A stretch of DNA of 64,000 nucleotides from an uncultured Candidatus Saccharibacteria bacterium (GCA_964409615.1 CAYPDT010000001.1:243880-307879); one strand, 5' to 3'. Numbered from the stretch's first letter, positions 3,997 through 56,695 are shown. Notes: a model not told the origin generated them from the sequence alone. A program made the numbers and translations.

Positions 3997-5475
3997 CTAG
4001 CTCGAGCGTTGTTGCTTGCGGAATACGTATGTTAGTAGTCCAATGCCAAGCATGCTGGCAAGTACATTGAGTATTTGTGCTATAGATCCAACACCCGTGT
4101 TTGGAGCTCCTGCGTTACTACCGCCAGATGCAGATGGAGTAGAAGCACCGCAGACAGCACCTTCGAATTGGTAGGCACCTACAGATGAGCATTCATCTGG
4201 GCGTGCTACGCCACGGGCGTCAGTGGTGACACCTAGAACTTGTCCACCAGCAGCGATAGCTGGAGAACCTGGCAAAAGAGCTCGTGTTGGAACTGCTCCG
4301 CCGTTATTCTGGAGTGGACCGAGAGTGGATAGTATGTTGCTGACATTTTGCTGATCACCTGATTGGTTGAAGGATGAGCAGCTGTCATCGTCTGAAATGT
4401 TATGGCCGAACGATAGAAGTGATAGATTCACTGTGCCCGGGCTACTGAACGTCGTGAGTGTACAGTTGGCAGCTGAGCCCATATGCGTATTACCCGCTAA
4501 TAGCGCATTGCCAACTGACAACGTTACACTTGCAGTTCTCGCATTCCCCGCCATACCACCAACGAATAAGGCGCTACTAGTCTGGCCATACTGCCCTAGC
4601 GCGGCCCCCGCGACATTAGTTACTGTTATATTTTGGAGTACGGTACTGAATACTGAATCACTACTATTTGCTCCACCTACATTTGCGAATCCAATCGCTG
4701 TATGCGCAGCCTCTAGGTTATCGATCGTAGTATTTACAATGCGAGAATTGACGGTACCGACTCCCATTACAAGAAATCCAAATACATCTCCACCACTGTT
4801 CGTGAGATTTGAGATAGTGGTATTCGATATGTCTATGGTACTTGATAAGCCATCTTGCAATTGAGTCTGAATACCGTGGACTATCCCTGATGTTGATGCT
4901 AAGTCATGAATGTATAGGTTATTGGTAGTTATACTATTGTCAACACCTTGGCTGTTCCCTAGCCACAATCCCCAGAGGGGTCCGCTATCAGGCTGAGCTT
5001 CGCCACCATCCACCTCAATATTTTCGAGCGTGAGAGCCCCTCCGTCATTCCATATACCTGCCCCAAAAAACTCTACAATGGTCATACCCTTTAATCTGAT
5101 ATTATCATTCGGGCTTTCAATATTAAAAGGTGCGTACAGTCCACTATCACCACTGATTACGGTCTGTCCCATACCTGCCCCCTGGATAGTCACCGATTCG
5201 GTTATGGCAGGCAAATCTGCTGTCAACGTAATCGTCCCCGCAGGAATAGTAATTGTATCGTTCGTGCCGTACCCACTAGGAGATACCGCGGCCGTACAAC
5301 CAGATTGGTTGGCACCTGCATTCACCGAATTAATAGCAATAGGAAGCGTACATCCGCCCGTGACGTTAAGGGTCGCTGCATGCGCCCGACCCGAACCAAA
5401 GGCAAGCACTGCCAAGAAGACGAAAGCTGCCAGGACTAGTTTGTTTGTTTTTGTCAGGTTCAGAATATTGAGCAT
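3997..5475 (-). CDS. Sortase-anchored surface protein, beta-helix-like repeats, APNTG sorting signal (paralog 2)
   Basis: The N-terminal ~90 aa and C-terminal ~130 aa are near-identical to the 1601..3076 product, while the core is divergent. It ends with APNTG, a hydrophobic helix and an RKQQRSS tail. Confidence 0.75.
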   Translation of the reverse strand: MLNILNLTKTNKLVLAAFVFLAVLAFGSGRAHAATLNVTGGCTLPIAINSVNAGANQSGCTAAVSPSGYGTNDTITIPAGTITLTADLPAITESVTIQGAGMGQTVISGDSGLYAPFNIESPNDNIRLKGMTIVEFFGAGIWNDGGALTLENIEVDGGEAQPDSGPLWGLWLGNSQGVDNSITTNNLYIHDLASTSGIVHGIQTQLQDGLSSTIDISNTTISNLTNSGGDVFGFLVMGVGTVNSRIVNTTIDNLEAAHTAIGFANVGGANSSDSVFSTVLQNITVTNVAGAALGQYGQTSSALFVGGMAGNARTASVTLSVGNALLAGNTHMGSAANCTLTTFSSPGTVNLSLLSFGHNISDDDSCSSFNQSGDQQNVSNILSTLGPLQNNGGAVPTRALLPGSPAIAAGGQVLGVTTDARGVARPDECSSVGAYQFEGAVCGASTPSASGGSNAGAPNTGVGSIAQILNVLASMLGIGLLTYVFRKQQRSS

Positions 5476-11550: not shown

Positions 11551-11578
11551 AGAAACACCCTCGCAAGAGGGTGTTTCT
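11551..11578. terminator. Hairpin between convergent genes (bidirectional terminator candidate)
   Basis: AGAAACACCCTC-GCAA-GAGGGTGTTTCT, a perfect 12-bp stem, lying between the 9702..11522 (+) and 11577..13091 (-) ORFs. Confidence 0.6.
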
Positions 11579-13091
11579 ATTTGGCAGGCTTAGAACGCCG
11601 AGCACGGAGAACGATAGCTATCAGCCGTCGTGTACTCACGAATACAGCTAAACATACAGTAATGACAAACCCAAACGATACCAGCCACTCACCAAACCGA
11701 GTGTATAGCGTTTCAACCTGGTTGGTACGTGCCTCGACTACCACGGTAGTTACGCCACTTACTTGAGCATACTGATTACCGTTTGTATCGATAGCATAGG
11801 CAGATGCTGCATTAGCTGATTGCAAGAAATACCGAGCGTTAGAGACAGCCATAAACTTCCCAAGAGTCTTTTGTTGCCAGGAAAATAACGGTGATCCTTT
11901 GAAGGTAGCCAGCGATGCTGAATTAGTAAATAGGTTAGCACCACTTCGGGCAAAATCACGGTAGTCCTGTGGAGCAATAATGCTCGAGCAAACGGCTGAT
12001 GCTACCCGAATGTCGTCACCAATAACAAACGGAAGGAGTTGGCTCTCACCTTTTAGTACACTCCGGGCATAATCAAAATAGCTAATAGTCGATTGTTGCC
12101 CAAGTGCCCTCAGGCCACTACGCACCACGTATGGGAGGTCTTCACCACCTGGAATTAATCGATATTTATCCTGCGCCTCTAGCATGCCATCACGAGTATT
12201 ACCAAACAACATCCGGTTTAGATGGCCGGTGGTACGATTACGAAAAACCTGCTCTGAGCCAACAAAGTACGCCGGTTTGTCCCCAAGCCCTACAATCCGC
12301 GTAGCCAGATTTTCATTGGTAATTTTATCAAGCCCGTATTCTGGAAAAACCACCAGATCAACATTTTCTGGCGTAACAACCGGTACTCGTGCGCTCAAAC
12401 GCTCACTAATCAATTCTGCTCGTAGGCTCACTCCATTTGTAGTACGGTATGTAAAAAAACCTACGAACGACAGTACAGCAAGTGCTCCAATAGGCCACAG
12501 GCTGGCTTTGCGAGTAGTTTTTCGTCTCACCAGGTACACTATCAACCACACAAACCCACCAAGCCCATAAAGTCCCACAATACGGGCTGCGAATCGAAAG
12601 GGTGTAGTAACAACCGGCAAGCCGACACTACCCATTGGCAACACGTTATCGATGCTGCCCTGCGGGCCAAGCCAGATTAAAGCAACCAACCAAGCAACGG
12701 CGTATTCTGCCAGCGCCATAACAGGCACGCCAAGCACCAATAGAACCTTCAGCCCCATGCGACGATGAATGAATGCCAAAAGACGAATAAACTGCCACAT
12801 AATTAGCACCGCCAACAGAACATTGATTAACACTACAACGGTGGCTAACGCCAAGCCTTGCGTCTTAGACCCAGCAAGCTTGAGCGAGTCGGTAAAGAAC
12901 GACCATGACCACATTAAGCTATACCAGACAACAAGTGACAGTATAAACTTGCGGCGCGAAGCCCACCCAACAACCGGATTAGTGAATCTCGCAAGTTGCC
13001 TGAGCTTCTGACGAAACCTTGTGGCAATTCTCGTAGACTTTGTATGCGCATTGAAAGCTCGCGCTGACTTATCCTTGTGCTGGACACCCAT
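11577..13091 (-). CDS. lnt: Apolipoprotein N-acyltransferase-like protein (multi-TM N-terminus plus carbon-nitrogen hydrolase domain)
   Basis: Several N-terminal TM helices. CN-hydrolase triad context: VVFPEYG (Glu), DKYRLIPGGEDLP (Lys), ASAVCSSII (Cys). Confidence 0.55.
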   Translation of the reverse strand: MGVQHKDKSARAFNAHTKSTRIATRFRQKLRQLARFTNPVVGWASRRKFILSLVVWYSLMWSWSFFTDSLKLAGSKTQGLALATVVVLINVLLAVLIMWQFIRLLAFIHRRMGLKVLLVLGVPVMALAEYAVAWLVALIWLGPQGSIDNVLPMGSVGLPVVTTPFRFAARIVGLYGLGGFVWLIVYLVRRKTTRKASLWPIGALAVLSFVGFFTYRTTNGVSLRAELISERLSARVPVVTPENVDLVVFPEYGLDKITNENLATRIVGLGDKPAYFVGSEQVFRNRTTGHLNRMLFGNTRDGMLEAQDKYRLIPGGEDLPYVVRSGLRALGQQSTISYFDYARSVLKGESQLLPFVIGDDIRVASAVCSSIIAPQDYRDFARSGANLFTNSASLATFKGSPLFSWQQKTLGKFMAVSNARYFLQSANAASAYAIDTNGNQYAQVSGVTTVVVEARTNQVETLYTRFGEWLVSFGFVITVCLAVFVSTRRLIAIVLRARRSKPAK

Positions 13092-29910: not shown

Positions 29911-31243
29911 ATGATTTTCTCCTTACATTTTCAATTACGTATACAATAATTCCACCTCCGCACGCAGCGATGAACCATCGCAAGGTTTGCATGCCATAAC
30001 TCAACGATGAGAAGTGCATGATTCGAGGGATTGCTACAAGTGATGCACTGGCCAGCACGCCTGTAAAAAATTGCACACCGGCCTCTCCTTCTCCAGGCAC
30101 GAAAAGTGTACTTGCAAATAACCCAGAAATACCGCAAAACACATGGAGTGAGACAAACAAAAACAGGAAAGCTACCAGGTTATCAGCTTGAACCAACAAG
30201 CACAGCGCCAAAGGAGCACCAATGAGAAAACTCATCAAAACTACCGCCCTAAGTTCTGACCAAACCAAGCCAGATACACCATTTATTAGCACGATTTCTG
30301 GTGGTTTATGCCTGCGAAAAAGACCACGGACATCACCCGCGAAACTTGCGGCTAAAATTGCACCAATCATCAATAACCCGTATGGGTCGGAAACTGTCTT
30401 GCTTTTTACTACGATACTTATAGCCACTATAGCGTCTAGAACAAATGCTAAACATAGCGAATTGCGCGTGCGCTTATTTCGCCAGACCTTAACCAATAAC
30501 CAACTTCTCGCCGACACTATATTTGGGATTAGCGACACTGTTATGTCGCCATGACTCAAGTTATCGAGTCTGCCAGTCTGTCTACGACTAGCACTAATCC
30601 CAATAATAGGTAGTAGCAGCACACAACTCGCCAGGCAAGCAATCAACTTTCTCTTGCCCACACCTGAACTCGTCAAAGATAATTCAACTAGCCAGACACC
30701 ACCACCAACAACCGCGGCATATGCAACGGCCTTAAGTAGTAAGCGTCGAGGTCGAGGCAATAAGACAAGCCCGAAACCACTCAGCAGCCCAAGTAACCAG
30801 CTTAGGATAATTAGCAGCTGACTACACTGCAGCCTAGTAGCCAAGTAACCCAGCACTATTCCACCCAACATGCTCATCATGCCTAATGACAGTAAACCCG
30901 GAACTATCCTGACTAACCAGCGCATAGTATTAGATATTGGTAGGAGCAATATTACTTTTTGTAATCCATTCAACTTAATTGCATCGTTGCCGTAGATTGT
31001 CAGCAGAAGTAAACCGCTCAAAACAAAGCCGGTAAGAAGACACAAATTAACGGCTAATTGCTGAGGTATGGACGTTGGCAATCCAGCCTTGGCAATAATT
31101 TTGGTAAATATCATACCCAAGCCAATCGCAGCCGCGTATCCAACTGTTAATCGAGTTAACAATGCCTCTCTTGGTCGATACGCCCCTCGTGCGAAAGCCA
31201 CAACCAAAACAGCTTGCCACAAAAGACTATAGCGACTGCGCAT
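29897..31243 (-). CDS. Polytopic membrane protein, putative ABC permease partner
   Basis: At least 10 predicted hydrophobic helices. It overlaps the ABC ATPase stop by 17 nt. Confidence 0.55.
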   Translation of the reverse strand: MRSRYSLLWQAVLVVAFARGAYRPREALLTRLTVGYAAAIGLGMIFTKIIAKAGLPTSIPQQLAVNLCLLTGFVLSGLLLLTIYGNDAIKLNGLQKVILLLPISNTMRWLVRIVPGLLSLGMMSMLGGIVLGYLATRLQCSQLLIILSWLLGLLSGFGLVLLPRPRRLLLKAVAYAAVVGGGVWLVELSLTSSGVGKRKLIACLASCVLLLPIIGISASRRQTGRLDNLSHGDITVSLIPNIVSARSWLLVKVWRNKRTRNSLCLAFVLDAIVAISIVVKSKTVSDPYGLLMIGAILAASFAGDVRGLFRRHKPPEIVLINGVSGLVWSELRAVVLMSFLIGAPLALCLLVQADNLVAFLFLFVSLHVFCGISGLFASTLFVPGEGEAGVQFFTGVLASASLVAIPRIMHFSSLSYGMQTLRWFIAACGGGIIVYVIENVRRKSYGRS

Positions 31244-31967
31244 AATGCTCCATAAATCCCACCTCTAGGCTGCCGTATTTTTCAATAATATGTTTAGTGA
31301 AATCGTTGAGCACAACTTGCCCCCTCCGAATCATTACAATCTCATCTGCAAATCGCTCTGCCCACCATAAGTCATGCGTAGCTGCGATAATTGCTGTGCC
31401 GCCAGCCTGTTTTCGTTTTAACAGCTTTTCGGCCTTGATGATAGCGATTGGATCTAGGCCGTTGCGCAATTCATCAACAACAATAAATCGTGGCTCATGA
31501 AGCAAGCCTGCAATTATTTGCACTTTTTTCTTGTTGCCATGGCTCAACCCTCCGAGCTGTTGATCAAAACTTGTAAAGAGAAGTTCTTCAGCAAGCTCCG
31601 CAGAACGCATAACCATACGCTTCTTACTACCGGCGATTGTCTGGACACTTGCCAGTAGTTCAAAATACTCTCGTGCAGTAAGCTCTGGAATGAGCCAGGT
31701 ATCGTCATCGGGGATGAAGCCAAGCGCTCGCTTTACATAGATATTGTCTGTATGTGATTCTGCTTCACACACCCTGACTGTGCCAGAGTCAGGCTGCACC
31801 AAGCCGACAATCGACTCTATAAGTGTGGTTTTGCCACTACCGTTTGCCCCAACGATACAGACTACACTGCCAGGTGTAAGATTCATGAAAGGTACAGCAA
31901 GCTGAAACTTCCCTCTTCGTACTTTTAATTCATGTATTGTGAGTATCAGTTTCTGTCTACTTCTCAT
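31227..31967 (-). CDS. ABC transporter ATP-binding protein
   Basis: Walker A GANGSGKTT, signature LSHGNKKKV, Walker B FIVVDE, H-loop ATHD. Start placed at the ATG at 31967, which has SD GGAGG 8 nt upstream. Confidence 0.85.
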   Translation of the reverse strand: MRSRQKLILTIHELKVRRGKFQLAVPFMNLTPGSVVCIVGANGSGKTTLIESIVGLVQPDSGTVRVCEAESHTDNIYVKRALGFIPDDDTWLIPELTAREYFELLASVQTIAGSKKRMVMRSAELAEELLFTSFDQQLGGLSHGNKKKVQIIAGLLHEPRFIVVDELRNGLDPIAIIKAEKLLKRKQAGGTAIIAATHDLWWAERFADEIVMIRRGQVVLNDFTKHIIEKYGSLEVGFMEHYAQSL

Positions 31968-32778
31968 GGTATTGCCTCCAGATTTTTCGAACTGTTTTCC
32001 CGTCGCCATATTCTGGTAGCCAACTTGCTACATGAAACACAGCGACAGCAGCCACTGATGCAGCCACAAAAGTGTCTCTGCTGGTACACATCAAGCTCAC
32101 AACAATAACGGCTGCCACTCCACCAAGTGGCCCCAGTAATGCTGAAGTAACTTCATCTACGGTACTTAGTGGTGGATGCAATATGCCGATACGAACACCA
32201 CGAGAAATTACCGCAACGGACTTTTTACTACGTTTTGCGATGAACATATGTATTGCTTCGTGAACAATCGTGGATATCCAGACAGTTACTAGCAAAAGTA
32301 CGTGTGCTTCTACGAACACCCATCCACCAACTCCACCGAAAGTTGTAACTCCAGCCACCACAGTCGTTACCCATACAAGCAACCTGCATGATTGACTTGT
32401 TGCTCTCACAACACTCCAAATAGTGCTTTTATATCGCCGAGACTGAACTGGCAGCGATACACCACGTAAGCGGAATATTATTTTTCTTATAGTGTGAATA
32501 TAGTGTTCCCATAATGAACGATGCACCATAAGTCCACCAATATCATTAAGAAACATAATAACGCTCGCAATTTCATCTTCGGCAAGTGTACAGGTTTTGA
32601 TGATATGCCTAATCCGTACTGGCTGCCTTAGCATATTCACCATTGGTATTGCAGCCGGAAGCACTACATGGGATGCTCCAGCGGCAGTGTCCATAAGCTG
32701 ATTACCATACAATGCCAACCCCGTTGCTAGTTCAATACAATCTTGTTCGGTGACAAGACCAAGTGTTTTGTTGAACAT
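31957..32778 (-). CDS. Membrane-embedded HExxH zinc-protease-like protein with N-terminal soluble (PqqD/RRE-like?) domain
   Basis: HEAIH sits within a hydrophobic segment (WISTIVHEAIHMFIA), and there are 4-5 TM helices. The ~90-aa N-terminal domain ends ..LAEDEIASVIMFLNDIGGLMV, which resembles peptide-binding PqqD-like domains. That last point is tentative. Confidence 0.55.
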   Translation of the reverse strand: MFNKTLGLVTEQDCIELATGLALYGNQLMDTAAGASHVVLPAAIPMVNMLRQPVRIRHIIKTCTLAEDEIASVIMFLNDIGGLMVHRSLWEHYIHTIRKIIFRLRGVSLPVQSRRYKSTIWSVVRATSQSCRLLVWVTTVVAGVTTFGGVGGWVFVEAHVLLLVTVWISTIVHEAIHMFIAKRSKKSVAVISRGVRIGILHPPLSTVDEVTSALLGPLGGVAAVIVVSLMCTSRDTFVAASVAAVAVFHVASWLPEYGDGKTVRKIWRQYHEK

Positions 32779-51884: not shown

Positions 51885-52820
51885 TTAGACTTGTTCGGCG
51901 TACACAATGATGCGTTGTTCAAAACTGTTCGTTTTGCGGTTAAATGCGCCACCGCAAGATATAATGTTTAACCCGTGTTTGGCTGTAGCTGGTTGCATCA
52001 CCTCGTACATATTGACGTCTGCTACATAGTGTTGCTCTGTCTTAATAACTTTATATGTAACCTTCGTCTTATCGCCCCGTTCGATACTAATAATATCCCC
52101 CGCCTGAAGTTTCTTGAGATTCACAAATACGCCCGGTTGTGTCGGGCCAGAAATATGACCATCAATAACGGTAGCACCACTTGCTTCTCCAGGTTTTGCA
52201 CTGCCGGTGTACCAGCCAGCATCATGGACATTATTTGGGGCTAAAAGCGTATCTTGCTTGTCTAGACCAACACGCATCACTCGGGCTTTTGCATTTAACT
52301 TAGGTATTTCGATAATACGGGGCGCATCAGGAGCAACTGAGTATGAGTCGAGGTTGTTTGGCTTGGCCTCATCAACATCTAGCGGACCACTTGCAGCCTG
52401 AGCGGATACTGTAGCAGTTGCCATTCTATCTATTCGGAATGAGTTAATCGAAACCGCGATACCCACTACAAACAAAAATGTTGCCATAGCCATAAGCATG
52501 CGATTAGATACAGTAACCTTCTGCTGCTTGGTAGGTTGCTTTTCGAGCTTCCAGGCCTCGGCGCGTTTGGCGAAATCTATACGCTCGGCTGTAGTAGAAA
52601 TAATTGAGGCAGGCGATGCTTGAAGGGGAGCCTCATGAGGCAACACTTCAACTGGAGCAACATACGAGTTACTCAATATCGTTTGCATAGGTGCGGTTGG
52701 TGCAGCAGCCGTTTGAACAACTGGACTACGCTGACTGACCGACTGGACAGGACGCCGTTTGTACGGCTGAATCCTGTCATACAGCAGCGACCTATCAAAT
52801 TGTATCGATTGTGTACTCAT
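51885..52820 (-). CDS. Sortase (class E/F-like) with ~100-aa cytoplasmic N-terminal extension
   Basis: TM at about aa 107-128. Conserved His (IDGHISG), catalytic Cys context LNIISCGG, and QRIIVYA. Confidence 0.8.
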   Translation of the reverse strand: MSTQSIQFDRSLLYDRIQPYKRRPVQSVSQRSPVVQTAAAPTAPMQTILSNSYVAPVEVLPHEAPLQASPASIISTTAERIDFAKRAEAWKLEKQPTKQQKVTVSNRMLMAMATFLFVVGIAVSINSFRIDRMATATVSAQAASGPLDVDEAKPNNLDSYSVAPDAPRIIEIPKLNAKARVMRVGLDKQDTLLAPNNVHDAGWYTGSAKPGEASGATVIDGHISGPTQPGVFVNLKKLQAGDIISIERGDKTKVTYKVIKTEQHYVADVNMYEVMQPATAKHGLNIISCGGAFNRKTNSFEQRIIVYAEQV

Positions 52821-52866: not shown

Positions 52867-54798
52867 CTAACGACTAGCTGTAGTGGACGAATACCTCTTA
52901 GCAATGATCACGATGAGCGCAGTGGTAAACAGTGTGACTGTCAGAGTGACAATGGGGTTGCTTCGGATGAGGCCACCAAAACCAGTGTTTGGTACACCCA
53001 GGTTGCGTGACAGCAAGACTTGCCCATCATTACCTGCGGAAGGGTTGCTTGGGAATTGAGTGGTTGCAGCACCAGCGACAAAACCGACTCTGTACTGCGC
53101 AGCATAACCGCCAACATTACTACATACAACTTTATAGTTTTGCTGACCAGACGTTGCGGTTACATTGATGGTGGCACTGCCGCCTGAGACAGTAGCGGAG
53201 TTGCTGCCAATGGCACAGGTAGTGGCATTCGTAGAAGTAACGGTGATGGGCACGGTGTCACCTTCTGTATGAGTACCGCCAGCTGCGGCTGCAGTTGTAA
53301 TGGCTGGCTTGTTATTCATTGCAGACAAAGTAGCTGCAAGTGCTAATCGCTTCTGTGAAGTCGTGGTATAGCTTGGACGGTTGTCGGTGATAGTCACTGC
53401 AGTCTCTTGCATGATACGGAGTATTGTGGCCACAGTAGCACTGGGGTTCTTTTCGCGCGCTACGGCCCAAGCACCAGCTACTATTGGACCAGCAAAAGAG
53501 GTGCCCTGCTCATCGACTAAACCGTTATTGCTGCTCACATCTGCTAGTGGTAGTCCACCATCATTAGTATTGAGTAGGTCGCCACCTGGCGCAAAGATAT
53601 CTGTTCTAGGACCTGCCTCGGTATAGTAAGCTGGGGTGTCGTCGACAGCACTAGCTGAGACTGCAACCGCGTTGGTTAGACAAGCTGGCCATGCAATTTT
53701 GTTAGCATTAGCAACGTGAACTGTCTGACCATTACCAGTATCTGTATTGCCGTTGTTGTGAGCAATCATGACCGGTGCGATATTAGCTTCACGGAGTGCT
53801 GCAAAAGCAGTGAGATACGGACCAGACTGCGAGTCTGCATCACAAGTGCTCGTGTCGCTGTAGGTGTTGTCTGGCTGTCCGATACTAACATTTACAGAGC
53901 TAATCGGTTCATTAAGTGCAGCATCATTCTGTAGTTGCGCAACTCGGTTGAGACCAGTAAGCACACCACTCATATTAACTTTATAGCAGAAGGAAACTGT
54001 TCCTGGATCTCCACAGAAGTCTGCCTGGCCGGCTTTTTCTTGTACCTTTAAAGTTGCCTTTATAAGTACAAGCTTTGCAGCCTTAGCAGAACCAGAGTAA
54101 CTCTTTCCACCACCTGTGACTTGCCTTCCGGCTGCAGCACTTGCAACGGCAGTCCCGTGAGCACAGGTGCCATCGTCAACTCCTACACTACAATCACTAG
54201 CCGCCGAAGATCCTGTCGATGTACTTGAATCAGCTCCGCCAGCACAAGTACTTATTACTTCAGCATCGGTATAACTTCCGCTTTGGCTGTAGCACGCCTC
54301 ACTCACGACTGCGCCTGACAACATAATGTGATTCAGGTTAAAGCCGGAATCGATAATAGCGACCGTCTGACCATTACCGGTGAAGTTAGTAGTACCATCG
54401 CTAAAACCATTAGCAACAGTTCCGCCCATCACTGGCAATGCCTGGTCGGTTCCAGCACCAATATCCAGTAATTTGTCTTCTGTAATCGATTTAATGCGCT
54501 TGTTAGCACGAAGCGAAGCCTCTCCCTCTGCATCTACCTGGACAACTGATACAGGCATTTCGCTGAGGTTCCGGAGAACGCGCTTATAGCCTTTTGTATA
54601 ACTAAGTTCGGTCATAACTCGGTTTTTCTGCCAGAAATACTTGGCACGAGTCTGAGCAACGCCTACTGATGTTCGCGGTTCACCTGGCAAGCTATCGTAC
54701 GTAATGATAAGCGACTTGATTGGTCCGTTTGGTGTCTCACTTCCCTCAGCCATCACAGGAGTTGAACCAATAAAGGCAAAGCCAGCTAATTGCAGCAA
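52867..54798 (-). CDS. Sortase-anchored S8 (subtilisin-like) serine peptidase, VPNTG signal; 5' end probably at 54860 via a 1-nt shift
   Basis: Catalytic triad contexts VAIIDSGFN (Asp), HGTAVAS (His), GTSFAGPIVAG (Ser). The C-terminus is GVPNTG, a hydrophobic helix and KRYSSTTASR. See the finding on the A7 tract. Confidence 0.8.
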   Translation of the reverse strand: MLQLAGFAFIGSTPVMAEGSETPNGPIKSLIITYDSLPGEPRTSVGVAQTRAKYFWQKNRVMTELSYTKGYKRVLRNLSEMPVSVVQVDAEGEASLRANKRIKSITEDKLLDIGAGTDQALPVMGGTVANGFSDGTTNFTGNGQTVAIIDSGFNLNHIMLSGAVVSEACYSQSGSYTDAEVISTCAGGADSSTSTGSSAASDCSVGVDDGTCAHGTAVASAAAGRQVTGGGKSYSGSAKAAKLVLIKATLKVQEKAGQADFCGDPGTVSFCYKVNMSGVLTGLNRVAQLQNDAALNEPISSVNVSIGQPDNTYSDTSTCDADSQSGPYLTAFAALREANIAPVMIAHNNGNTDTGNGQTVHVANANKIAWPACLTNAVAVSASAVDDTPAYYTEAGPRTDIFAPGGDLLNTNDGGLPLADVSSNNGLVDEQGTSFAGPIVAGAWAVAREKNPSATVATILRIMQETAVTITDNRPSYTTTSQKRLALAATLSAMNNKPAITTAAAAGGTHTEGDTVPITVTSTNATTCAIGSNSATVSGGSATINVTATSGQQNYKVVCSNVGGYAAQYRVGFVAGAATTQFPSNPSAGNDGQVLLSRNLGVPNTGFGGLIRSNPIVTLTVTLFTTALIVIIAKRYSSTTASR

Positions 54799-55026
54799 TA
54801 CAATAGCTACTACACCACTGCAGCCAAAGAATCGGCGTATTTTTTTGTTTGTTGTCTCATATTTTATTTTCCCTCATGTTGTATAAAGAACTTGCTTTGA
54901 GCTTATGTTTAATCAGTTATTCTGTCAACAACAAACTATGTACATGTTGTTTTGTGTACAACTTTTATCCACAAGTGTTTTGTGATTTGCCAGATATCAA
55001 TGATTATTGTTGTTACGTAGTATTAT

Positions 55027-55509
55027 TTACGCACTAATACTTCCGTGCCATTCACTCAGTAGATATGCTATCGAATCAGTCGTTTTAAGTTTAAACAAAC
55101 GGCCATTTGTGCCAGTTGAAGTGATGGTAATTGTCAGACGCGATTGTGGAAGCACATCCTGCACAATATCAGCCCACTCTACAATCACAACAGTATCAGG
55201 TTCGCTGAGTGCCTCGGCAAGTTCAAACTGCATGAGGCCTGGGTCATGCAAACGATAAAAGTCGTAGTGCACAATTCGCTTGTCGCCGCTTCGGTATTCT
55301 TTATTGACCGTAAATGTTGGGCTCGACACTTTATCTTGGCTGCCAAAACCACGAGCGATGCCTCGCACAAGCGTTGTCTTACCGCCACCTAGGTCACTAA
55401 TCAACTCAATCACCTCCCCGCCGCGCAGTCGATTGCCTATTCGCTCACCGATTTTTTCGGTGTCTTCTGAGCTGTCTGAAGAAATTTGCAGCGTCTTGTC
55501 GATATTCAT
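55027..55509 (-). CDS. tsaE: tRNA t6A biosynthesis ATPase TsaE
   Basis: P-loop SDLGGGKTTLVRGIARG, a family-typical N-terminal region (SEDTEKIGERIG) and C-terminal WAD. The start is uncertain (55509, 55518 or 55533). Confidence 0.75.
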   Translation of the reverse strand: MNIDKTLQISSDSSEDTEKIGERIGNRLRGGEVIELISDLGGGKTTLVRGIARGFGSQDKVSSPTFTVNKEYRSGDKRIVHYDFYRLHDPGLMQFELAEALSEPDTVVIVEWADIVQDVLPQSRLTITITSTGTNGRLFKLKTTDSIAYLLSEWHGSISA

Positions 55510-55777
55510 ATGCTCCATATAGTACCGCAGCACCCCCTACCCCGGCAACAACCCCTGAATGGACTGATGGTTTTACTTGCATAGTATTAGCCCTTGCATT
55601 TTTAGACTTGGTCTTGGTAGATGCTGTATTAGATGTGGCTTTTTGGGAAGTCTTGGGAGCAGTACCTTTACCTGCTACTTTTTTGGTAGAGCCTTTTGCT
55701 GGTTTGCTAGTATTAGAGTTTTGGTCGGCCGCAAATTGATTTGCTTGGTTTGGAGTAGGAGATGATGTCCAGTACCA

Positions 55778-56695
55778 CTACTCACCACTCCACGCGTATG
55801 ATTGACCAACTTTTGCCAGTGCATAACTGAGCTGGTCTATAGTGTTGTCATTCACCGTACTGAGCACCACCCTACCCGTTGAATTACTAAGTGCTAGCTT
55901 TGTTTGGCCGCTATAGAATGCTTTGTACTCGCCTGGGCCTATCACATAGCCAGATAGTATATATTTCTTACTTATCTGAGAACCCACCACAATCTTGTAA
56001 GTCGAGAGGTCTATAGTCTGCGCCGACGAGTTGTGCAGCTCGATGAACTCTCCTTCGGCATCAGTTACTGGTGAAGCTGGGTCGGGCAGAACCTCAGTAA
56101 TGCGCAGTATGGAAGTGTCAACAGATGACCCGTCAGTACGCGCCACTAATGACTCGGAACTTACCGCAAAATCCTGCTTATTATTACCGGTTTGCACTAG
56201 CATGTGATTACTATCGACATTTCTTCTTAAAACCTGGCCAGCGCCCGGTGCGACTGCTGCAGACACCATAGGTAAGCCAGCAGTACCCCAACCCAAACGG
56301 TCTACTTCTTGCCCCTGATATGCAAGACGAAGATGACCTCCGCCAGCTGCTAACGTAGAATTAAATGTCTGATTAACATTAGATATGAGTGTTTGACTGG
56401 TAGCAATTACATAGGCGGAAGATGGCTCGGCTTGTCCTCGTAGGGCGATGATGCGACTCGGTTTGGTAAAATCTTTTGCAGTTGCCGGAAAATATTGGAC
56501 TACATAATCGGCAAGAGCGATGGCATGGTTAGAACTGTTGGTCAGCTCGATGAACTCATCACTGGCATTTTGAATACTGCCGGTTTGCACTGCAGTAATT
56601 AGTAAGCCATCGGGTATAGAAGTTAAAGCATAAGCTTGCTGCACTTGCAACAACTGCATGGATGCCATCAATACCGCTAGAATTACCCTCTTCAT
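55778..56695 (-). CDS. Secreted protein with two lamin-tail-like domains
   Basis: Signal peptide, and two copies of the LTD-like motif (DEFIELTNSSNHAIALADY; GEFIELHNSSAQTIDLSTY). It ends at a TAG that is followed by a long open in-frame extension. Confidence 0.65.
   Translation of the reverse strand: MKRVILAVLMASMQLLQVQQAYALTSIPDGLLITAVQTGSIQNASDEFIELTNSSNHAIALADYVVQYFPATAKDFTKPSRIIALRGQAEPSSAYVIATSQTLISNVNQTFNSTLAAGGGHLRLAYQGQEVDRLGWGTAGLPMVSAAVAPGAGQVLRRNVDSNHMLVQTGNNKQDFAVSSESLVARTDGSSVDTSILRITEVLPDPASPVTDAEGEFIELHNSSAQTIDLSTYKIVVGSQISKKYILSGYVIGPGEYKAFYSGQTKLALSNSTGRVVLSTVNDNTIDQLSYALAKVGQSYAWSGE

Follow-up and report, generated by a model that had tools for sequence, protein, structure and literature searches.

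The gene for a lamin-tail-domain (LTD) protein on the minus strand of the analyzed DNA most probably carries a recent nonsense mutation, CAG to TAG, which truncates a surface protein and represents an ordinary strain-level knockout allele. With the same high degree of confidence the gene product is regarded as a conserved, membrane-anchored cell-surface protein of Saccharibacteria with 416 amino acid residues in its intact form, and the TAG allele as a real allele that segregates in natural populations beside the intact CAG allele. The DNA is a stretch of 64,000 nucleotides from an uncultured Candidatus Saccharibacteria bacterium (GCA_964409615.1, CAYPDT010000001.1:243880-307879), here called the window; all positions are counted from its first letter.

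Translation of positions 55445-56695 on the minus strand revealed a reading frame which starts with the ATG at 56695, comprises 305 codons (56695..55781) and is terminated by a TAG at codon 306 (55780-55778). Behind this stop the same frame stays open for 110 sense codons until a TGA is reached at 55447-55445 on the minus strand, in agreement with the original prediction. The translated extension, WYWTSSPTPNQANQFAADQNSNTSKPAKGSTKKVAGKGTAPKTSQKATSNTASTKTKSKNARANTMQVKPSVHSGVVAGVGGAAVLYGAYEYRQDAANFFRQLRRHRKNR, contains all three segments quoted there, namely WYWTSSPTPNQ..., the hydrophobic stretch VVAGVGGAAVLYGAY and the basic end RQLRRHRKNR. The probability of 110 stop-free codons was approximately 0.002, whether calculated from the base composition or estimated by shuffling the 330 nt 20,000 times, and a random opening of this length is indeed as unlikely as had been assumed. 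The window contains 60 ORFs with a length of 150 amino acids or more, of which the LTD gene is the sole one with a long post-stop opening for which no other cause was found. All other post-stop openings of at least 110 codons in the window correspond to an adjacent gene in the same frame or to an antisense shadow ORF. The openings after 5475..3997, 13091..11577 and 32009..31227 were rejected as candidates, since they represent an adjacent same-frame gene or an overlap with neighbouring genes.

The LTD family (Pfam PF00932) was recognized in the protein with an E-value of 1.4e-24 and a score of 87 bits (cut-off 34.3) in two stretches, the best of which covers residues 196-291. When the read-through translation was compared with 5.8 billion proteins, 250 matches were obtained, nearly all with a coverage of 90-100%, and the closest matches are LTD proteins of Candidatus Saccharibacteria with about 390-480 amino acids. 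A tblastn comparison with one genome per GTDB species revealed 216 relatives; in most of the 80 kept loci the match spans residues 1-416. Obviously, the downstream frame is conserved and the orthologues do not end at the position of the TAG. In an alignment of 21 sequences the residues W307, W309, P315, N319, A384, L392, Y393, Y396, E397 and Y398, all 3' of the stop, are invariant, and in an alignment of 76 sequences W298, W300, P306 and N310 of the orthologue P0001 are invariant or nearly so. In both alignments the residues behind the stop are among the most conserved ones of the LTD protein. Because full-length homologues cover it, the extension represents the true C-terminus with the end of the second LTD domain, a Lys/Ser/Thr-rich linker, a transmembrane (TM) helix and a basic tail, most of which had been suggested originally as a plausible membrane anchor. 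By these sequence comparisons the extension behind the TAG can be assigned as real coding sequence. A literature search for LTD proteins in Saccharibacteria or Patescibacteria, or for the overlap with tsaE described below, gave nothing relevant.

The structural interpretation is based on an AlphaFold2 model of P0001, an orthologue with 93% identity (76-sequence alignment, mean pLDDT 85.7). This model consists of two beta-sandwich domains (pLDDT >90), a disordered stalk (pLDDT 45-69) and two helices at residues 371-388 and 390-406. All of the following features lie on the minus strand of the window. The protein starts with a predicted signal peptide with an A-x-A site (codons 1-23, MKRVILAVLMASMQLLQVQQAYA, 56627..56695), for which the model exhibits low pLDDT with the first strand only afterwards; the cleavage site was inferred by eye. 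The first domain, LTD1 (residues ~31-179, 56159..56605), was assigned from Pfam PF00932 and from the beta-sandwich at P0001 22-170 with pLDDT >90. The second domain, LTD2, extends up to the stop (residues 197-305, 55781..56107) and is covered by the Pfam stretch 196-291 and by strands to P0001 290-293 (299-302 of the window protein); its last strand is missing. This cut-off end of LTD2, the strand WYWT together with the cap SSPTPNQAN, is encoded directly behind the stop (codons 307-320, 55736..55777), as indicated by conservation and by a strand at P0001 298-301 with pLDDT 95-97. It is followed by a low-complexity linker rich in Lys, Ser, Thr and Ala (codons 321-376, 55568..55735; pLDDT 45-69), the length and sequence of which vary in the family. 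The predicted TM helix (codons 380-397, SGVVAGVGGAAVLYGAYE, 55505..55558) corresponds to the helix P0001 371-388 with pLDDT >90 and contains invariant residues. The family-conserved basic juxtamembrane or cytoplasmic helix YRQDAANFFRQLRRHRKNR, corresponding to P0001 390-406, and the ancestral TGA (55447-55445) complete the frame (55445..55504). The intact protein would combine a Sec signal peptide, two extracellular lamin-tail (Ig-like) domains, a flexible Lys/Ser/Thr-rich stalk, a C-terminal TM helix and a short basic cytoplasmic helix.

Two LTD Ig-like domains are shared with other bacterial extracytoplasmic proteins of PF00932. Unlike these, the Saccharibacteria subfamily has a fixed arrangement of signal peptide, two LTDs, Lys/Ser/Thr stalk, TM helix (AGVGG..LYGAYEYRQD) and basic helix. 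The subfamily is also set apart by the tsaE overlap at its 3' end and by its fixed synteny, recA, hypothetical, recX, hypothetical, LTD, tsaE, which is also found in a 43%-identical orthologue. The C-terminus resembles sortase LPXTG signals in that a hydrophobic segment stands between a short motif and a basic tail, and a sortase gene is located 3 kb away. In contrast to such signals, the motif before the TM helix, KP[PS][LV]H[TS]G in the family and PSVHSG in the window, is poorly conserved (HTG, HSG, HNG, HPL, RTG and others), and a conserved helix of 20 residues follows the TM segment, whereas the neighbouring S8 peptidase possesses an invariant [VT]P[ND]TG. A sorting signal in the LTD tail was ruled out, as every motif position is variable and the tail is a long conserved helix.

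Single domains of the model were compared with known structures using Foldseek. The matches were the Ig-folds of lamin A/C, B1 and B2 (1ifr, 3gef, 3jt0, 2lll and 3umn) with a probability of 1.0 and target-normalised TM-scores of 0.55-0.68. The top matches of the whole chain, transglutaminases and CsxA, were set aside as matches of tandem Ig-domains with an rmsd of ~16 Å. In the P0001 model the last LTD2 strands span residues 290-293 and 298-301, equivalent to 299-302 and 307-310 of the window protein, and the ten-residue blocks over P0001 291-310 show pLDDT values of 95 and 97. Codon 306 thus falls between the last two LTD2 strands and before the final confidently modelled one; the Pfam LTD envelope stops at residue 291, ahead of the TAG. 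A C-to-T change at codon 306 would stop translation after residue 305. Since the TAG lies before the last LTD2 strand, the product would retain the signal peptide, LTD1 and the larger part of LTD2 and would lack a core strand (WYWT) with its PTPN cap as well as the stalk and the membrane anchor. Judged from the model, the truncated protein is likely misfolded or at best shed, i.e., a functional knockout. Loss of function by misfolding appears likelier than a functional soluble form because the TAG removes the last conserved strand of LTD2. The idea that an anchored protein was converted into a released one consequently goes too far; besides the C-terminal anchor the last beta-strand of LTD2 is lost, and a functional released form is doubtful.

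The ancestral codon was deduced from close relatives, with allele counts resting on 12 contigs (L001-L012); scanning one genome and one metagenome contig collection, neither of which contains this species, for exact patterns of the CAG and TAG alleles gave no match. Two of them, L001 with 95.1% and L002 with 96.9% nucleotide identity, contain GAG CAG TGG in place of GAG TAG TGG in the window. Eight contigs (L005-L012), each from a different JGI, ENA or Logan sample and 99.4-99.9% identical to the window, carry CAG without exception. The two full-length proteins encoded by them, P0122 and P0124, equal the read-through translation of the window with Gln at position 306 and fall into the same 90% protein cluster as the 305-aa product of the window. 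In other species the aligned codon is a sense codon at 82 of 82 loci (G 16, S 11, T 10, K 9, V 9, A 7, others); neither a stop nor Trp was found at this position in any of the 82, and a stop was also absent from all ten close relatives. By comparison with these sequences the event is best described as CAG (Gln) to TAG, one C-to-T transition at 55780 (G to A on the plus strand). A change of TGG to TAG at 55779, as originally proposed, was ruled out since the relatives have CAG (10/10), the position is variable and the other species never have Trp (0/82); the proposal of a recent nonsense mutation itself stands. The altered base is the first one of the codon, 55780, rather than the A at 55779 for which read support was to be checked.

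The whole LTD gene of the window differs from those of L005-L012 at two positions only, the synonymous 56671 and the nonsense 55780, and the 330 nt behind the TAG (55777-55445) show zero differences. The TAG allele is therefore very young, because the sequence behind the stop is still identical base for base to that of the intact alleles. Relaxed selection on the tail was considered with respect to the substitutions K334T, Q351K, S377P and S380T, which distinguish the window from L001 and L002. This idea was dismissed, since all four are common to the intact CAG alleles P0122 and P0124 and thus predate the stop. The ratio of synonymous to nonsynonymous changes relative to L001 and L002 is 2:4 in the tail and 23:24 upstream, too few changes for an interpretation.

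The 305-aa product is found in NCBI and in Logan (698,658-bp contig). A Logan contig from run SRR12404947 (L003) shares 8,886 nt, the TAG among them, with the window at 100% identity and was perhaps assembled from the same reads or sample as the window genome. The TAG is also present in a Logan contig from run SRR24742824 (L004; protein P0127, 305 aa) with 99.35% identity and 16 flanking differences. Window, L003 and L004 have three tsaE SNPs in common (55237, 55234 and 55137) which separate them from the eight CAG contigs; the TAG consequently resides on a haplotype of its own. The 16 differences of L004 are concentrated in two places, the LTD 5' end and the tsaE 3' end. L004 appears as a mosaic with a centre including the TAG that equals the window, and with L001/L002 alleles at 55047-55125 and 56616-56677. 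Window and L003 share five private SNPs within 50 nt (55049-55096). Both observations suggest recombination tracts or a chimeric assembly of co-occurring strains.

An assembly or sequencing error in the deposited genome of an organism which in truth has CAG would fit a single-base change at a position where most relatives have CAG, and a nearby homopolymer difference, A7 versus A8, that is typical of error-prone reads. However, the independent k-mer assembly of SRR12404947 matches 8.9 kb of the window, both differences included, without a single mismatch, and the other run, SRR24742824, contains the TAG on a different haplotype. Even if L004 were chimeric, TAG-containing k-mers must exist in SRR24742824. 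Since the TAG occurs in two independent Logan assemblies, one with a different flanking haplotype, an error, which had been listed among the possible explanations, can be regarded as extremely improbable.

Another possible explanation was readthrough, programmed or tolerated, in which a near-cognate tRNA-Gln or a suppressor tRNA would allow the synthesis of some full-length anchored protein. It would account for the perfectly intact downstream frame, and the same gene family has a second in-frame TAG. This independent TAG was observed within LTD1 of a locus from Candidatus Saccharibacteria STL-PAT11 (L092, JAXLZV010000001.1, ~1579-1581) in the context GTC GAT ATA TAG GGC (VDI*GLS); the gene is otherwise intact, including the TM tail. 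From its sequence, the L092 TAG is compatible with recurrent inactivation. In the window, the 60 long ORFs (150 aa or more) end with TAA in 29, TAG in 20 and TGA in 11 cases. TAG thus ends a third of the long ORFs and is not rare as a terminator, and no other unexplained long extension behind a TAG was detected in the 64 kb. A tRNA with the anticodon CUA was absent from the five tRNAs found by scanning the 64 kb of the window (Glu, Gly, Arg, His and Pro). Relatives that keep the extension do not keep the stop, which is absent from all 82 loci of other species and all ten close relatives, so that nothing conserved is present to programme readthrough. Furthermore, the stop is followed by a T, and in E. 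coli termination is strong in this context. Both reassignment and programmed readthrough are disfavoured because TAG ends 20 of 60 long ORFs and the stop is unconserved. The intact downstream frame needs no special cause, since no other substitution in the LTD gene is as recent as this mutation. Readthrough was consequently considered very unlikely, and the small probability left for a leaky TAG is due to the second in-frame TAG in L092. Like UAG reassignment or suppression, known from pyrrolysine and from phages which translate TAG as Gln, the LTD gene has a TAG in frame where relatives encode Gln, with intact coding sequence behind it. It differs from such systems in that it is the single TAG of this kind, is polymorphic within the species, and is accompanied by frequent genuine TAG terminators without a suppressor tRNA in the window. 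The findings at this position are those of a nonsense allele: a sense codon in relatives at a distance of one base, a homologous tail in frame, and independent contigs with the TAG.

The 3' end of the ancestral LTD frame overlaps the tsaE gene, a 168-aa ORF (55027..55509, minus strand) with a match to Pfam TsaE (PF02367, E=3.4e-33) from residue 20. Its ATG at 55509 (MNIDKTL...) consists of bases 2-3 of the Tyr396 codon and base 1 of the Glu397 codon (TAT GAA), and the overlap amounts to 65 nt in the +1 frame. The same context, the xxYEY of the LTD tail (TAT GAA TAT) with tsaE in the same relative frame, was found in 66 of 80 Saccharibacteria species loci (survey loci L013-L094). The overlap spans 53-173 nt, most commonly 65, 77, 86, 95 or 104, and is always 2 mod 3. 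At 12 further loci tsaE overlaps the LTD gene with a slightly offset alignment. Since the ATG of tsaE lies inside the Y-E-Y motif in 66/80 species, the overlap of the two genes is, on the evidence of these sequences, an old and conserved feature across Saccharibacteria. The strong conservation of LYGAYEY may be due in part to dual coding. The sole downstream in-frame start of tsaE is a GTG, the use of which would cost ~35 residues of the TsaE domain. Gene callers that avoid overlaps appear to have used this GTG, giving tsaE products of 118-121 aa. The original claim that the overlap favours a downstream tsaE start is thus contradicted by the position of the ATG at 55509 inside the Y-E-Y codons. 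In the TAG allele ribosomes would halt ~270 nt before the tsaE start, across which they normally would translate.

The gene on the other side of tsaE encodes an S8 peptidase, listed as ORF 54798..52867 (minus strand); in relatives the true start is an ATG at 54860. An A tract at 54846-54840 differs between near-identical strains. Window and L003 contain A7, which is out of frame and removes the n-region of the signal peptide. In L006, L008 and L009 the tract is A8 and in frame, giving MRQQTKKIRRFFGCSGVVAIVLLQLAG... as N-terminus. L005, L007 and L010-L012 carry A9, again out of frame, and a C-to-A change at 54795 makes a new ATG. In all S8 peptidase orthologues with 47-63% identity the N-terminus is of the longer type and includes a basic n-region. 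The variation of the A tract could represent phase variation or fixed frameshift alleles. At the C-terminus of the peptidase (52867-52990, minus strand) the sequence ...GVPNTGFGGL... is followed by a hydrophobic stretch and KRYSSTTASR. P, T and G of the motif [VT]P[ND]TG are invariant in eight sequences, and a sortase gene (52820..51885) is located directly downstream. By its sequence this C-terminus can be classified as an LPXTG-type sorting signal. The window strain has lesions in two adjacent surface-protein genes, which fits a strain-level loss or variation of exposed proteins.

This raises the possibility that the truncation is adaptive, i.e., that the TAG is kept since the cell profits from shedding or lacking the LTD protein, for example by escaping a phage or host factor which recognises the anchored form, with the LTD gene being one of several surface-protein ON/OFF switches in this population. 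This proposal refines the preferred explanation of a recent knockout allele and does not contradict it. It is consistent with the presence of the TAG on two flanking haplotypes, from no fewer than two independent runs, with the 7/8/9-A tract of the neighbouring sortase-type surface protein, the S8 peptidase, of which only the A8 form is in frame, and with the second, independent TAG that interrupts the orthologous frame in another species. On the other hand, a base substitution is no reversible switch, the TAG was present in only 2 of 10 close run-level samples, a single site permits no test of selection, and a functional released form of a product without a core strand is doubtful. Adaptive truncation was accordingly judged unlikely. 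A slightly less probable reading, and one we consider quite unlikely, is that LTD nonsense and S8 A-tract alleles belong to a strain-level ON/OFF variation of surface proteins in epibiotic Saccharibacteria which, through lost translational coupling, would also alter the expression of the t6A-synthesis gene tsaE. Such an effect on tsaE would follow from the overlap of the LTD tail with the tsaE start in nearly all Saccharibacteria.

A known case of premature-stop alleles of an anchored surface protein is inlA of Listeria monocytogenes. Like these, the LTD allele is a nonsense substitution in a secreted, C-terminally anchored protein that segregates among near-identical strains and removes the anchor. 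Unlike in inlA, the anchor consists of a TM helix and a basic tail instead of LPXTG, and a core strand of the last domain is lost, too. Moreover, the LTD allele belongs to an uncultured Saccharibacteria lineage.

For annotation, the deposited 305-aa protein represents a truncated allele, and its entry should mark it as a pseudogene or a variant with a premature stop, the full form being a membrane-anchored protein of 416 aa; tsaE should retain the upstream start at 55509. As one more knockout of a surface protein within a species, the finding itself is unsurprising. As is often the case for exposed surface proteins, loss of the LTD gene is, we infer, either tolerated or favoured. To our knowledge, the host-contact proteins of Saccharibacteria are largely unknown; the LTD protein and the adjacent S8 peptidase are marked here as dispensable or variable surface components. 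More noteworthy are two by-products of the analysis, the conserved out-of-frame overlap of the LTD gene with tsaE and the poly-A variation in the S8 peptidase gene.
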